A stretch of DNA of 64,000 bases, from NCBI GenBank assembly GCA_036339995.1, contig JAYYZW010000039.1, positions 35,852-99,851 on the forward strand, read 5' to 3'. The stretch comes from Pseudomonadota bacterium (GTDB lineage Bacteria > Pseudomonadota > Gammaproteobacteria > Ga0077536). Shown here one piece after another: positions 36,001-42,000 of the stretch (its first letter is position 1; every line of letters starts with the position of its first letter). Position numbers: made by a program.

Positions 36001-39000
36001 ACCGGGGATCTCGTCCACCTCGGGTTGCCCGCGGAAATCGCTCACGCACGCGAATGGCTGGAGCGGTTGAGTGAGCAAACGCAGGTCGTGCTGGTCCCAG
36101 GCAATCACGACTGTTACCGGCACGACTCTATCGATCACGTCTATGGGCAGTGGGCACGGTTTCTCAACCTGCAACCCAATGATCGCAGTGGATTTCCAAG
36201 CGTATTGCGTAAAGGGTCTGTATCGTTCATCGGAGTATCGTCGGCGTTGCCAATGCCGGTGTGGTCGGCCGGCGGAGATATCGGCCGCGTCCAGATCGAA
36301 AAGCTCGACCGTATTCTGAGCGAGACAAGCGGGACCTTTCGCTGCCTCGGACTGCATCATCCGCCGCTCGTCGGTCAGGTCCCGGGGCGAAAGGCGCTCG
36401 CCGATGCTTCGCTGCTAGAGGGCTTGATACGGAAGCATGGCGTCGAACTCGTATTGCATGGCCATGTTCACCGTAATCGCGAAACGGTCGTCGACGAGCG
36501 CACGCGCGTCATGGCCAGCGCTTCCGCTTCACGCGTTTCCGGGCGTAACCGTGCATCTTTTCGCACGTTAGACGTTCAAGCAAGCGATACGCAATGGCAG
36601 GTGACGGGCAGACTCAAATCTGTCGATGACAACGGCACGTCGATCGTATTGTCGGAGCAAAGCTGGCAGATTGAAAAGCGGCGCGCTTGAGGGCGGTGAG
36701 CGCCTGTTAAGACAAGCGCCTAAGTCCGACCAGTGCGACGGTCAACGCCAGTACTGCGGGCAACAGGGCCGAAGGAGCGGCGGGAATTTCTAGTATCGTG
36801 GAGAGGTGCCCGGTCATCTGTTCGAGTAGATAAAATCCGATCCCAACGGCAGCACCGATAACGAGCCGGAATCCAGTGGAATGTGATTGCACCGATCCAA
36901 TTACGAAGGGCAGGCCGAGCAGAGTCATCGCAATCAATGCCAGCGGTACGCTGATCTGCCGCCAGAAGATCGATTCATATTGGTGGGTGTTGACACCACT
37001 GCCCTCCATCGCACGAATATAGCGATAGAGATCGGCAGACGACAGCGAATAGGCCGGAGCCTGCAAAGTGGACAATTGCTCGCGGCTCAGAAAACTCTGC
37101 CATTCGAGCTCGTCGAGGACGCGGTACCTGATGGCATCGTCCCCCAGAATTTTCTCCTGCACCCCGAACAGCATCCAAGTCTGTTCATCGATGATGTCTG
37201 CCCTGTGTGCCTGCAGCATTCGCTGTAAACGACCGTGCGGCCCTATTTCATAAATTTCAATCTCTTGTGGGATGCGTCCAAACTCGACGCCGCCGACGCG
37301 GATAAATCGATTATCGTGCCGGCTCCAGAATTCAGTTCCGCCCCCTAGTGTCGTCTGAGACAGTGTCCTGGAGCGGAATTCCTGAGCCTGGCGTTCGACC
37401 GATGGAATGACGTAATTCTGTAAGACGACGGTGACGAATATCAGCCCTAAGGCGGCGGCACATGGACCGCGCGCAAGCCGCCATGGTGACAGACCGGCGA
37501 CTCGCATCACGATGATTTCACGGTAGTTGGCCATCGCGCCCAGGCCGAGTATGGCCCCGAGAAGAGCGCTGACCGGTAATAAGTCGGTGATTCGCTTCGG
37601 CGTGGTGAGAAAAACGACGGAAACGGCATCCGAGGTCGTGAAGCTCCCGGTACCGACGTCCTCCAAGGCCTCGGCAAAGCTGAGGAAGCTGAATAGCGCC
37701 AACAACAGCATCAGTACCAAGCCGGCCGCCTTCACGAAATTGAGAGCAAGGTAGCGTTCAACGGTCGTCATTTTCGACGTCTCGCGAGCGGGCGGATTGA
37801 GAACATAGCGATCACGCATGCGAGGAGCGCTGGTACCCACCAGATGTTTGGCAAGGTTTCGTGCTCAACCCAGGTTCGGCCGACGCCGAGCAGGTTGTAG
37901 TAGACCGCATAAACGCCAATCGCGATCGGTATCCTCGTGTAGCGGCCCTCGCGGGGTTTGGAATCGACCAGCCTGAGTGCGGCCAATGCGAGTAGGAGTG
38001 TTGACACCGGCGTCGATAGGCGCCATTGAAATTCCGCACGATCGTGGGCCTGTTTTGAGAGAGACAGTGCCGAAGTGGGTTCCGTTTTTGCTCGATAATC
38101 ACGCGCGACGCTGCGTTCGGCGTTGAGGAATATCGTCAGAGTGTCGAACCTTCCGTAAAAATCCGATGCGTCGGCCGTGCTTTTGTATATGCTCGCGTCG
38201 TTCAGCACGAGCCGATGTCGAGTATCGGTCACGAAGGTTTCCAATCGCCCCGTGCTGGATGTAATGACTTCCATATCGTTCGCTTCACGATCCCGAATAA
38301 AAATACCGACGAGTTCCTTTCCATTCCTACCGATGTCCTCAACGTAGACCGCGCGGTTTTCCTCCTCGAACAGGTAGAAACGCTGAGAGCGAATACGGCC
38401 GAGTTCCGAGGTCGCCTTTGCTTGCGCTCGCAGCTCGTACATGGCGTCATACGCCCACGGCCTAACCACGATCGACAGTGTGCCAACCGCTGTCGCGAGC
38501 AGTATGCTCAGTAGAATCAGCGGACGATGCATTCGATTGCGGCTCATTCCGCAGGCGTGCATGGCGATGATTTCGGTATGGGTATTGAGGCGGCCGAAAC
38601 CGATGATGAGACCGAAATAAAGTGCAAGCGGCAACAGTACTTCGAGAGCGATAAGGGATTTGAAGAATGTTAGGTGCGCGACCTCCGCAGCTTTAAAGAG
38701 CCCACTCGCTGCATCGGTCAGGAATAGACTCAAGCTGTATGCGAGAAAAATAGCGATGAGCGCCATTGCCACACCGATGGAACTCAAGCTGATTTCGCGG
38801 ATTAGATAGCGATCGAAAAGCACGGCATATAAAAAGGCGATGAAGATGGAAATACGGGGGCAGATTACTTAATTTCTTGCAAGCGTGCATTTTGTTTTAT
38901 GCGTTCTCGAAATAAGTAATCTGCCCCCGTATTTCTATTACCGGCGTATCCGCTATGATGAGCAGGTGAGAGTGTCAAATCAACCGTCGATCGAATCAAA

Positions 39001-42000
39001 GCTGAAACGGCTGGCGATATCGGTCGTGACGATTGCCGGCGCTTATCAGTCCGTACACGCCGAGGCCATCTATGCAATTCTGGACGACGCCATCATCGTG
39101 CGCGCCCGCGAAGCGCGCGAAGCAGAAAACGGCAACGCTATGTTTCTGCAAGGTGGCTTGGAGTTGCGGGCACCCGAGTGGCGGATCGATGCAATTCGCG
39201 GTGACATTTATGGCAAGCTGGAAGATCCAGATCGGATCGTCGCCGACGGCGATCCCGCGCGCATTTCCGTCAGCCGCTCGCAAGACGGAGAAATCTTCGA
39301 TGGCAGGGGCCAGCATATCGAATTCGAGCCCAACGGCCGCACCGTCAAGCTTGAGGGGGAGGCTGTCGTCGTAAAGGGGCGTCAGTCTATTCGCAGTCGG
39401 TCCATCGAATATAGACTGGACGAAGATAAGTTTTACGCAGGTGATGACGGTCGTGTTCGCGTAGTGACGACGCCCAAATCAGACGCTTCCTGAGCGTCGT
39501 CAAAGCGGCCGCCAGGTCGAATATTCCAGCGGGCCTGTTTCACCAGACCCCGATCAGGCGATCCACCAGGCGTTTGTTAATTGACGCGACCGTGCTCGTT
39601 GCGTGGTCCAGGCGCGGCGGCCCTGGCCATCCCGGATCGTCGAATTCAATCTGCTCAAACGAGCGCACATCTGCATATCGCGGGATCACGTGAAAATGCA
39701 CGTCCTTGTCGACCATCATCAGCATCAGGTAATTGATCTTGTCGAAAGAGAAGGCTGCGGCGAGCGCGAGTTCAATGTCGTGCGTAATCTGCGCGAGTTC
39801 CTCGCAGCCGGCCGCCGAGACGTCACCAAAAGCCTGTACGGGTTCCTTGCTCGCCAGGATGAGCGCGCCGAGCGTCGCCTGCTGCGGTCGCAATAAGACG
39901 ACCCAGGACGAATAATCTGTGATCAGGGTGTCCGGATAGCCGAACTTGAGGATGGTTTCATTCACGCTCTTCTACTCGCCTCGCCACGATTCCCCAAGTC
40001 CGACAAGCTTCCAGGAACTACCATTCAGCCGCAGGCCGACGTGACCGGAGCGACGGTCGAAACCCATTCGCAGACGACGGTCGCGGCATGCTCGAGATCG
40101 GCGTGATCGTCGATTTCACACCAGCTCAGGCCGTCGATTGGACAAGACCCGACCAGGCCTACTTGGGCAAGTTCGTCGATTGCGGACAGATACCATTGCT
40201 TGACGCCCTCGCTCGAGCGCATCAGTTGCTCCACTTTGTGGCTGAATTCGCCCGGCCCGTTAGCACGAAAGGCCATCATGCCGATCGATTCGCCGTTGAC
40301 CTTGTCCGTATTGAGCTGCTTGCTGACGCGCTGCAGGCACCCCTGCTCGACGATTACTTTCATATCGTCGCTGTCATAAGCGGCTTTGCTGTCGGTCACC
40401 AGCTTGATCGGCGCATCGGTGTTGCTGTCCAGTAGTTTGCGCAGGATCGCAGCTTCGAACAGCGTGTCCCCGTTGATAATCACGAAGGGCTGATTCATTT
40501 CGGTACGGGCCACCCAGCACGTGCCGAGATTGTCGCAGCGCGCATAGAAGGGATTGTAGAGCGTGCGCACGGGCATTGCGGTTTGGCGGGCAACGATCTC
40601 GTCGACCTTATCGGCGCCGAATCCGGTAACGACTACAACCTCTTCGATGTCGCAGCGCGCGATTTCCTGAAGCTGCCATTCGAGTGTGGACCGCCCGGCG
40701 ACCGTTAGGGCGCACTTGGGCTCATTTTCGGTCAGGGGCAGCAATCGTCGACCCTGGCCGGCACTCAGAATAATCGCTTTCATTCGGTTGTAATCTTGCG
40801 GGATTTTCGCCGGTTAAACTCAGCGCGACTCTAGCACGATTGCAGTTCGGTTCGATAACGGAACATTGCGCTCGGGCGTCAGGAAGTGCGTTCGGGTCAG
40901 CGGCGATTCCATTCGGCGAGATTTCTAATCGGGTCCTTGACGTAGTGTGTCGCCTGCACGATTGTCAGAACGAAACGATTAAACCACGTTCCCAGGCGAT
41001 CCATGGGTCGGTCGAAATCCAGAAATAGCACGGCACGGTATTCCGGCGTGTCGTTGGTGACTTCGTGCTCGTAGGTGTCATCGAACAGCAGGCATTTACC
41101 TTCTTCCCATTGACAGATCTGTTCGTCGATTCGAATCCAGCATTTTTCGGCCTGCGCGGGTACGCGTAGCGCGAGATGGCAGCGCACCAACGCGCGCGTC
41201 GGTCCCCGGTGCGGCGGAATGTGATAGCGCGGCGCGAGGATCGAAAACCAGGCGTTTTGCAAACCCGGCAATCCGGATAAAAGCTCCGTAGTGACCGGAC
41301 ATTCACCGCAATTCGGATGGATTTGCCTGCCGAAGATATACAGTACGAAGGTTTTCCAGTGATCTCCTTTCGAGATGCGCGCTTGGTCGGGCGAAATTTG
41401 ATGAAAGGCGGGGATATCCTCGGGATGGGCCCAAACCTGCTCGAATTCCGTGCGGATCTGCGGCCAAGAAGCCTCGATCAGTGGTACCCAATCGAAGCTT
41501 GCCTTGTCGAGGACGGGCTCTATGGCGATCCGTGAATGGCGGCCCTGGAACTCGAGAATTCCGCGCAGGAATTTCTTGCCCAAGCGGTGAACGACTTTGC
41601 GCCGCCATGTTTTAATCCGTTGCCCTCGAGTAGTCGAATCAGCCATCGGCAAGCACCCGCTCGGCGAGTCGAAGATCATCGCTGGAATCGATGTCGACGG
41701 CCGCTCTGGCATTGTCGACCGTGCAGTGTTCGACCTCGCAGCCGCTGTGCTTGGACAGGATCTTAAAGGTATCGCGGGTGGAGAGAGAGCGCGTGAGATA
41801 TCGCAGCAGCGTCAACCATCCGAGATGCCCAGCGATCCGCCACGGACGCTTACGCTCGGTTTCCAGCTGCGTCCACCAGCGCAGTGCGGCGCGGCCCTGT
41901 GGATTGTTGATCAGGAACAAATTGCTGCTGCAGAAAGCGGCGTCGCTGAATCGCAGTATTGTGCGCCGCGATTCGGGAAATGCGATCTGTACGGTCTGTA

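Follow-up and report, generated by a model that had tools for sequence, protein, structure and literature searches.

In the sphingolipid region of Caulobacter a second LptC, LptF and LptG have been annotated as probable transporters (PMC11324152, 2024). In a subsequent preprint the corresponding genes lptF2 (CCNA_01214; CC_1156), lptG2 (CCNA_01213; CC_1155) and lptC2 (CCNA_01226; CC_1168) could be deleted only if spt or cpgB was deleted, LptF2 and LptG2 were found to be essential only when the anionic sphingolipid is made, and the two proteins co-purified mutually and with the single LptB (10.64898/2026.04.12.717747, 2026). Homologues were reported from alpha- and gammaproteobacterial sphingolipid loci, including that of E. 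coli UTI89, no duplicates of LptA or LptD/E were found in any sphingolipid locus, and LptC2 was seemingly restricted to Caulobacter (10.64898/2026.04.12.717747). For the sphingolipid route to the outer membrane, current work places LptF2/LptG2 and LptB at the inner membrane. Here we analyzed a stretch of 64,000 nucleotides (contig JAYYZW010000039.1, positions 35,852 to 99,851; referred to as the window) from an uncultured soil gammaproteobacterium, in which an lptF-lptG pair and a divergently transcribed LptA-like gene are located inside a sphingolipid gene cluster. We consider it likely that the three genes make up the transport arm of this cluster in a bacterium of the lipopolysaccharide (LPS) type. 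That lptFG serve as a dedicated sphingolipid exporter is a supported reading, but it is not new given the Caulobacter work of 2024 and 2026. The conserved, cluster-encoded LptA paralog appears to be new, as far as the searched literature shows.

The three genes and the region between lptF and the LptA-like gene were arranged as follows.

36707..37771, minus strand: lptG-type permease (LptG2), 354 aa, from ATG at 37771 to the stop at 36707; matches TIGR04408 and full-length PF03739
37768..38823, minus strand: lptF-type permease (LptF2), 351 aa; matches TIGR04407 and PF03739
38846..38938, no strand: palindromic insert with 29-nt arms and a 35-nt loop in the lptF/lptA-like intergenic region
about 38966..39493, plus strand: LptA/OstA-family periplasmic beta-jellyroll protein (LptA2), about 175 aa, in an open reading frame (ORF) open from 38885; matches PF03968

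The window lptF matched the TIGR04407 LptF profile with 286.6 bits (cutoff 230) and PF03739 with 204.5 bits, while lptG matched the TIGR04408 LptG profile with 315.8 bits (cutoff 240). The PF03739 matches were full-length, with profile positions 1-353 and 1-350 covered by the two permeases. The EIIAMHACGMS motif was present in LptF, and the ATG of lptG (37771-37769) overlaps the TGA of lptF (37770-37768), reading AATGA on the coding strand. An earlier note on this DNA, made from the sequence alone, had described an LptF with IIAMHACGMS coupled to LptG by an ATGA overlap, and both the profile matches and the coordinates bear this out. No protein with a Walker A or LSGGQ motif, and therefore no lptB, is encoded in the 64 kb; the note's remark that lptB is absent from the vicinity thus extends to any ABC (ATP-binding cassette) ATPase. 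The window LptF was 25-27% identical to the canonical LptF of P. aeruginosa, V. cholerae, K. pneumoniae and E. coli, and 28-29% identical to the LptF of the E. coli spt locus; the corresponding value for LptG and the E. coli spt-locus LptG was 29%.

To place these genes, one genome per GTDB species was scanned. A relative was found in 345 genomes, of which the best 80 were kept, and the counts given below were taken over 83 non-redundant related loci, with serine palmitoyltransferase (Spt) scored within 10 kb. The LptF homologues ranged from 95% down to 47% identity in the best 120 of 1319 matches. Synteny with the sphingolipid genes was kept over deep divergence, for LptF homologues from 95% to about 40% identity. 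Inspection of the contexts of homologues with 91, 74, 72, 61, 55 and 47% identity revealed the same cluster with a divergent LptA-like gene in all of them, and an LptA-like homologue with 87% identity was likewise located in the same lipid cluster, divergent from lptF-lptG. Spt was present in 57 of the 83 loci, at least one gene of the sphingolipid cluster in 76, and a YghO-like acyltransferase in most. The LptA-like gene was found in 70 of the 76 loci with enough upstream sequence, always adjacent to and divergent from lptF. This LptA paralog, head-to-head with lptF2, is a specific candidate for the periplasmic step that has been missing. Neither PepA, a canonical-type LptF/G nor an LptB-size ATPase gene was found in any of the 83 related loci. 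In two of them (L031, 1765-3513, and L084, 7502-9346) ORFs of 582 and 614 aa with Walker A and LSGGQ motifs were located next to the cluster; these have the size of fused MsbA-type ABC exporters and are possible candidates for lipid flippases, and the window contains none.

The window matched a metagenome scaffold in ENA, and the nearest genome was a gammaproteobacterial metagenome-assembled genome (MAG) with a 91% identical LptF. The earlier note had framed the locus by comparison with LPS-free sphingomonads, which proved wrong for this organism; a sphingomonad origin was rejected, as the nearest genomes are gammaproteobacterial MAGs and Spt fits best to NCBIfam NF047599. The labels of the kept genomes were mostly Gammaproteobacteria or groups within it (Lysobacterales, Pseudomonadales/Ca. 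Azophilus, Woeseiaceae, Wenzhouxiangellaceae). Some were labelled only to phylum or as 'uncultured bacterium', and two basal members were labelled Nitrospirales and Nitrospinota. One contig labelled 'MAG: Klebsiella pneumoniae' (L024, CAMCBY010000067.1) carries the cluster with a 61% identical LptF, while the canonical K. pneumoniae LptF is 23% identical; this contig is probably mis-binned or mislabelled. In two long-read contigs (L011, 11073-12151; L012, 7766-9435) lptG or lptF was broken into two ORFs. These could be sequencing indels or genuine pseudogenes, and in the latter case they would argue that the lptFG pair is dispensable.

The state of the permeases in E. coli is informative as to whether such a pair can be an extra copy. 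In the K-12 reference the housekeeping order is valS-holC-pepA/lptF-lptG, and this canonical locus was found in all 5426 complete E. coli genomes. The spt gene was matched in 4101 of the 5426, and an spt-linked second pair was present in about 4100. E. coli holds both copies, which makes the spt-linked pair an accessory, second one there. PGAP also names the spt-linked pair lptF/lptG, so a protein that passes the LptF or LptG equivalog model is not thereby identified as the housekeeping copy. As the window permeases score above the same cutoffs, second copies of this kind would be labelled LPS exporters. The order of the E. coli spt locus is acyl-AMP ligase, epimerase, acyl carrier protein (ACP), spt, lptG, lptF and a YtfJ-family gene, with yghO alongside. 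At the DNA level no match to the E. coli locus was found for lptFG-lptA, and spt was matched only at 66%. In one E. coli genome (L004; NZ_CP021726.1, 3152370-3163793) the place of the window's LptA-like gene and CDP-alcohol module is occupied by genes for a YtfJ-family periplasmic protein, a Wzx-like 'lipopolysaccharide biosynthesis protein' and two dTMP-kinase-like proteins (yghS and yghT).

One alternative is that the window lptFG is the only, housekeeping pair of the genome, as in Sphingomonas wittichii, around which sphingolipid genes have accreted, and that it exports LPS, possibly together with sphingolipid. Only one clade locus per complete MAG chromosome was present among the 80 kept loci, the cluster and its flanks have equal GC content, both permeases exceed the cutoffs of the NCBIfam equivalog models for LPS LptF and LptG, and the preprint reports the sphingolipid-locus LptFG to be sole copies in S. 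wittichii and a single copy in Bacteroidetes and Myxococcus (10.64898/2026.04.12.717747). However, the equivalent spt-linked copies in E. coli, which PGAP also calls lptF/lptG, are extra copies, and the pepA/holC/valS context was found in 0 of about 85 loci. The earlier note had allowed that the lipid genes might simply have inserted beside housekeeping lptFG; the pepA/holC context that would mark such a neighbourhood was absent from the window annotation and from all related loci. The lptFG pair has an internal position in the lipid cluster and is carried along with it into different neighbourhoods. The clade is also taxonomically patchy. Its LptF was at a median of 28% and a maximum of 33% identity to the canonical LptF of Pseudomonas, Vibrio and Klebsiella, which are mutually 32-44% identical, and members labelled Pseudomonadales shared 43-46% identity with the window LptF but only 26-32% with that of P. 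aeruginosa. Finally, one MAG bin contained two clade members that are 60% identical, one in a full sphingolipid cluster and one elsewhere. In a neighbour-joining (NJ) tree that also included canonical LptF, the LptF2 of E. coli and outgroups of LptG, the Pseudomonas/Vibrio/Klebsiella LptF group was separated and E. coli LptF2 took an unsupported position at the clade's base. The deep nodes were not resolved, and the tree was therefore not used as proof of paralogy. Altogether, this indirect evidence favours paralogy: lptFG is likely a dedicated paralog of the sphingolipid cluster, with a separate canonical lptFG presumably encoded elsewhere in the genome, while a sole housekeeping copy is unlikely.

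Several observations weigh against a dedicated sphingolipid exporter of this kind. In addition to the equivalog scores of both permeases, no canonical second lptFG from the complete relatives was present among the listed homologues (all at least 39% identical) or the 80 loci, and neither a pepA-linked lptFG nor a canonical lptC-lptA-lptB operon was shown in the organism or its close relatives. The NJ tree leaves a common origin of the clade and E. coli LptF2, separate from canonical LptF, undecided, with about 28% identity in every direction, and MAG labels and bins are imperfect. The LptA-like gene was missing in 6 of the 76 loci and in the E. coli spt locus, and LptA2 is therefore not obligatory. 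A few clade members were also located in lipid clusters that are not sphingolipid clusters.

The earlier note had described a divergently transcribed OstA-family periplasmic beta-jellyroll protein, and profile and fold matches bear this out. The ORF at 38885-39493 matched the PF03968 LptA/LptD_N profile with 35.8 bits (cutoff 20.4), while the match to the TIGR03002 LptA equivalog (51 bits) was under the cutoff of 71.7. The AlphaFold model of the protein was a beta-jellyroll with a pLDDT of 90.7. The top PDB matches found by Foldseek were E. coli LptA (2r1a/2r19; 20-22% identity) and P. aeruginosa LptH (4uu4), with a probability of 1.00 and TM scores of 0.80-0.87. Neither lptB nor lptC adjoined the gene in the window or the related loci, which leaves it outside an lptC-lptA-lptB operon context. 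An exhaustive search with the protein returned 157 representatives (50% clustering, E <= 1e-3), nearly all of those listed being about 100-250 aa long; word-indexed searches returned only 6 and 18 proteins, and the family was seen only by the exhaustive search.

The start of the LptA-like gene is most likely a GTG at 38966 or 38972 and not position 38885. The signal peptide proposed in the earlier note was recovered as a signal-peptide-like segment, KLKRLAISVVTIAGAYQSVHA followed by EA, but with the start corrected to one of these codons. Its h-region is 12 residues long and is followed by VHA, with EA after the putative cleavage site. In the family the N-terminal hydrophobic runs had a median of 12.5 residues, and a small-x-small site followed the run in 34 of 36 members. 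Judged by its length, the hydrophobic run of the LptA-like protein appears too short for a membrane anchor. A short run with a small-x-small site fits a cleaved signal peptide, and the protein is therefore read as a soluble, LptA-type component.

In relatives the LptA-like proteins are extended at the N-terminus, and an in-frame YDG...Q motif precedes the hydrophobic segment. A TATGATG sequence at 38954-38959 of the window reads Tyr-Asp-Gly/Glu, with a CAA 24 nt later, ahead of the signal peptide. Equivalents were found in L005, L009, L010, L016, L019-L021, L025, L027-L029 and L090, and the motif was in frame 0 in 16 of 18 occurrences. A role as a -10 box was rejected: the sequence is conserved, but its frame makes it likelier to be part of a translated N-terminal extension. 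In the relatives this extension is probably translated. A simple scan of the region for promoters or terminators gave nothing.

In the window the LptA-like gene is separated from lptF by an inverted repeat. The earlier note had given it as 27 bp; the repeat is real, but was measured as two 29-nt arms (38846-38874 and 38910-38938) with 93% complementarity and a perfect core of 23 nt. None of 100 shuffles gave a match like it, and the predicted fold had an energy of -54.7 kcal/mol (z = -8.9). The hairpin was found only in the same-species contigs L001-L003. In L012 (LptF 87% identical) and L013 (90-91%) an unrelated near-perfect hairpin was found with exactly the same boundaries, GAAGATGG preceding the insert and TATTACCGGCG following it (L012, 9916-9965; L013, upstream of 10001). 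No insert or hairpin was present at this site in more distant relatives, one of which has the two start codons only 8 bp apart. A conserved operator was considered and rejected: the hairpin is absent from or swapped in relatives, and it is therefore a lineage-specific palindromic insert. The site looks like one for a replaceable palindromic cassette. The LptA-like gene of the window has its ancestral 5' end disrupted by the insert, which cuts the TATGATG motif from the ancestral start.

These features bear on a second alternative, that the LptA-like protein is not a soluble LptA but an adaptor of the LptC type, anchored in the inner membrane and functionally like Caulobacter LptC2. The probably translated extension of the relatives, with its frame-0 motif ahead of the hydrophobic segment, would be consistent with an anchor, the model predicts a single long helix at residues 9-41, and no LptC-like gene is present within the cluster. 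We nevertheless regard an LptC-type adaptor as improbable. The window protein gave no match to PF06835 LptC in a profile search, and of 146 scanned family representatives 144 matched PF03968 and only 7 LptC. The fold is also closer to LptA, since LptC structures had a TM score of about 0.69 and 8% identity to the model. The short hydrophobic runs and small-x-small sites of the family are those of typical cleaved signal peptides, and a palindromic insert cuts this extension off in the window as well as in L012 and L013.

The genes on both sides of the three are listed below.

29267-31024, plus strand: acyl-AMP/ACP ligase (Pfam)
30975-31955, plus strand: CerR-like NAD reductase (Pfam)
31978-32238, plus strand: ACP (gene calls of L001)
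32246-33448, plus strand: Spt (NCBIfam NF047599, 581.9 bits, cutoff 500)
33618-34538, minus strand: 306-aa protein, head-group module 1
34531-35724, minus strand: CDP-alcohol phosphatidyltransferase, head-group module 1
35812-36690, plus strand: metallophosphoesterase, head-group module 1
39540-39965, minus strand: HIT-like protein, head-group/tailoring module 2
40025-40783, minus strand: NTP transferase, module 2
40897-41646, minus strand: LpxO-type Asp/Arg hydroxylase family protein, module 2
41639-42433, minus strand: NTP_transf_3 protein (second NTP transferase), module 2
42438-43583, minus strand: YghO-like GNAT acyltransferase, probable ceramide synthase, module 2; 391 aa, 50% identical to E. 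coli YghO

By these assignments the cluster encodes the ceramide core in full, together with a head-group module of the CDP-alcohol type. Weak similarity to inositol-phosphate cytidylyltransferase and transferase enzymes was seen for both the NTP transferase and the CDP-alcohol transferase, and the genes of module 1 accompany lptFG in most related loci. The position of lptFG between two lipid-tailoring modules, as given in the earlier note, was confirmed by lipid genes on both sides. What the note called a sphingolipid island is indeed a complete sphingolipid cluster, although 'island' is a loose term for it: GC content is even over the cluster and its flanks, and its imuB neighbour is found in relatives too.

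The genes outside the cluster vary by genome and include rpsF-rpsR-rnr-rlmB, imuB, N,N-dimethylformamidase (DMFase)-like genes and TsaD. In the window a run of lexA, a 210-aa ORF and an imuB-like gene (IMS family) is located directly upstream of the cluster (25750-28614) and looks like a lexA-imuA-imuB mutagenesis cassette; imuB also adjoins the cluster in L009. On the other side (43800-50095) the cluster is flanked by two tandem pairs of DMFase-like genes, each consisting of a DMF_alpha small subunit and a large subunit of about 800 aa with DMFA2_C and Laminin_G_3 domains. This neighbourhood is kept in several relatives (L005, L008 and L012).

We propose that the membrane part of an ABC extractor would consist of LptF2 and LptG2, and that the extractor would be powered by the housekeeping LptB ATPase encoded elsewhere; binding of LptB is known from Caulobacter, and its sharing is inferred here. 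It would draw the cluster product, probably a ceramide with a phospho-alcohol head group derived from CDP-alcohol chemistry, from the inner membrane's outer leaflet. The secreted LptA2 beta-jellyroll may then receive the lipid by docking at the periplasmic jellyrolls of LptF2/G2 and hand it along an Lpt-type bridge toward LptD/E. The conserved synteny, the lack of pepA/holC, the two-copy state of E. coli and the genetics and pull-downs in Caulobacter are all in line with the dedicated sphingolipid exporter that the earlier note had suggested, its sphingomonad framing apart.

Some clade members deviate with respect to the lipid genes around them. In L035, L042 and L058 (about 9400-12140 and flanks) the LptA-like/LptF/LptG trio was found in a cluster without Spt. 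By Pfam, the L035 cluster encodes two LpxL-type (lipid-A-type) acyltransferases, a sulfotransferase, a 2-oxoglutarate (2OG) oxygenase, an ELM1-like protein, an HpcH aldolase and a Polysacc_synt flippase, and the ORF sets of L042 and L058 are similar. This suggests that the trio may export a different exotic lipid there. In L065 (2384-16377) lptFG of the same clade, without an LptA-like gene, is located beside a complete arn (aminoarabinose) operon and beside genes for myo-inositol-1-phosphate synthase, an NTP transferase and a CDP-alcohol transferase. L040 is a sister of L065 and belongs to the same MAG bin as L050, which has a full sphingolipid cluster. From these contexts it follows that the lptFG(-LptA2) module may serve other envelope lipids too.

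That the trio is a generic accessory exporter of outer-membrane lipids, with its substrate set by the phospho-alcohol or another tailoring module and not by the ceramide backbone, so that in the window the trio might export a product of the CDP-alcohol transferase other than a sphingolipid, would accommodate L065 with its arn operon and inositol-phosphate synthase/NTP-transferase/CDP-alcohol module, the three trio loci that have two LpxL-type acyltransferases, a sulfotransferase and a flippase and no Spt, and L005, which has the trio with CDP-alcohol and NTP-transferase modules and no Spt, ACP or CerR within 10 kb, but it is very unlikely given the complete ceramide gene set in the window, the presence of Spt within 10 kb there and in 57 of the 83 loci, and the YghO-like acyltransferase in most of them.

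With a dedicated sphingolipid exporter as the preferred reading, a broader idea can be put forward tentatively. Many gammaproteobacteria (345 species-level genomes in our scan) might have a further Lpt pathway, parallel to the first, for lipids of the outer membrane other than LPS, with a private LptA paralog instead of LptC as the entry point in the periplasm and with LptA2 docking directly on LptF2/G2. Such direct docking, if true, would explain the absence of a Caulobacter-type LptC2 elsewhere. The pathway would answer the question posed in the preprint of how sphingolipids cross the periplasm, and the trios beside clusters with LpxL-type acyltransferases and a sulfotransferase would then represent the same module reused for other exotic envelope lipids.

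Compared to the canonical LptB2FGC-LptA-LptDE bridge, the window shares the permease family, the beta-jellyroll fold, the overlap of lptF and lptG and an lptB that is unlinked, as in E. coli. It differs from it in lacking the pepA/holC context, in the low identity of its LptF (23-27%), and in an LptA-like protein that scores under the equivalog cutoff and is encoded outside an lptC-lptA-lptB operon. The canonical cargo is LPS, whereas that of the window is predicted to be a sphingolipid.

The E. coli spt locus (yghO-yghT, e.g., in UTI89; L004) resembles the window in its gene order, namely an acyl-AMP ligase, an epimerase-type reductase, ACP and spt, with lptG-lptF on the opposite strand and a YghO homologue (50% identity) nearby. 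However, its permeases are only about 29% identical to those of the window, a YtfJ-family protein is found instead of the LptA-like gene, and the locus lacks the modules with CDP-alcohol transferase, phosphoesterase and NTP transferase.

Like the window, Caulobacter crescentus carries an LptF/LptG pair inside a sphingolipid locus without lptB, together with an extra periplasmic component of the OstA superfamily. As judged by their descriptions, this third component is of the LptC type in Caulobacter, whereas that of the window is of the LptA type, with a PF03968 match, an LptA-like fold and a putative signal peptide. The Caulobacter LptC2 gene is located at the far end of the locus, while the LptA-like gene of the window is immediately divergent from lptF, and the head-group chemistry relies on cpg genes in Caulobacter and on a CDP-alcohol transferase in the window.

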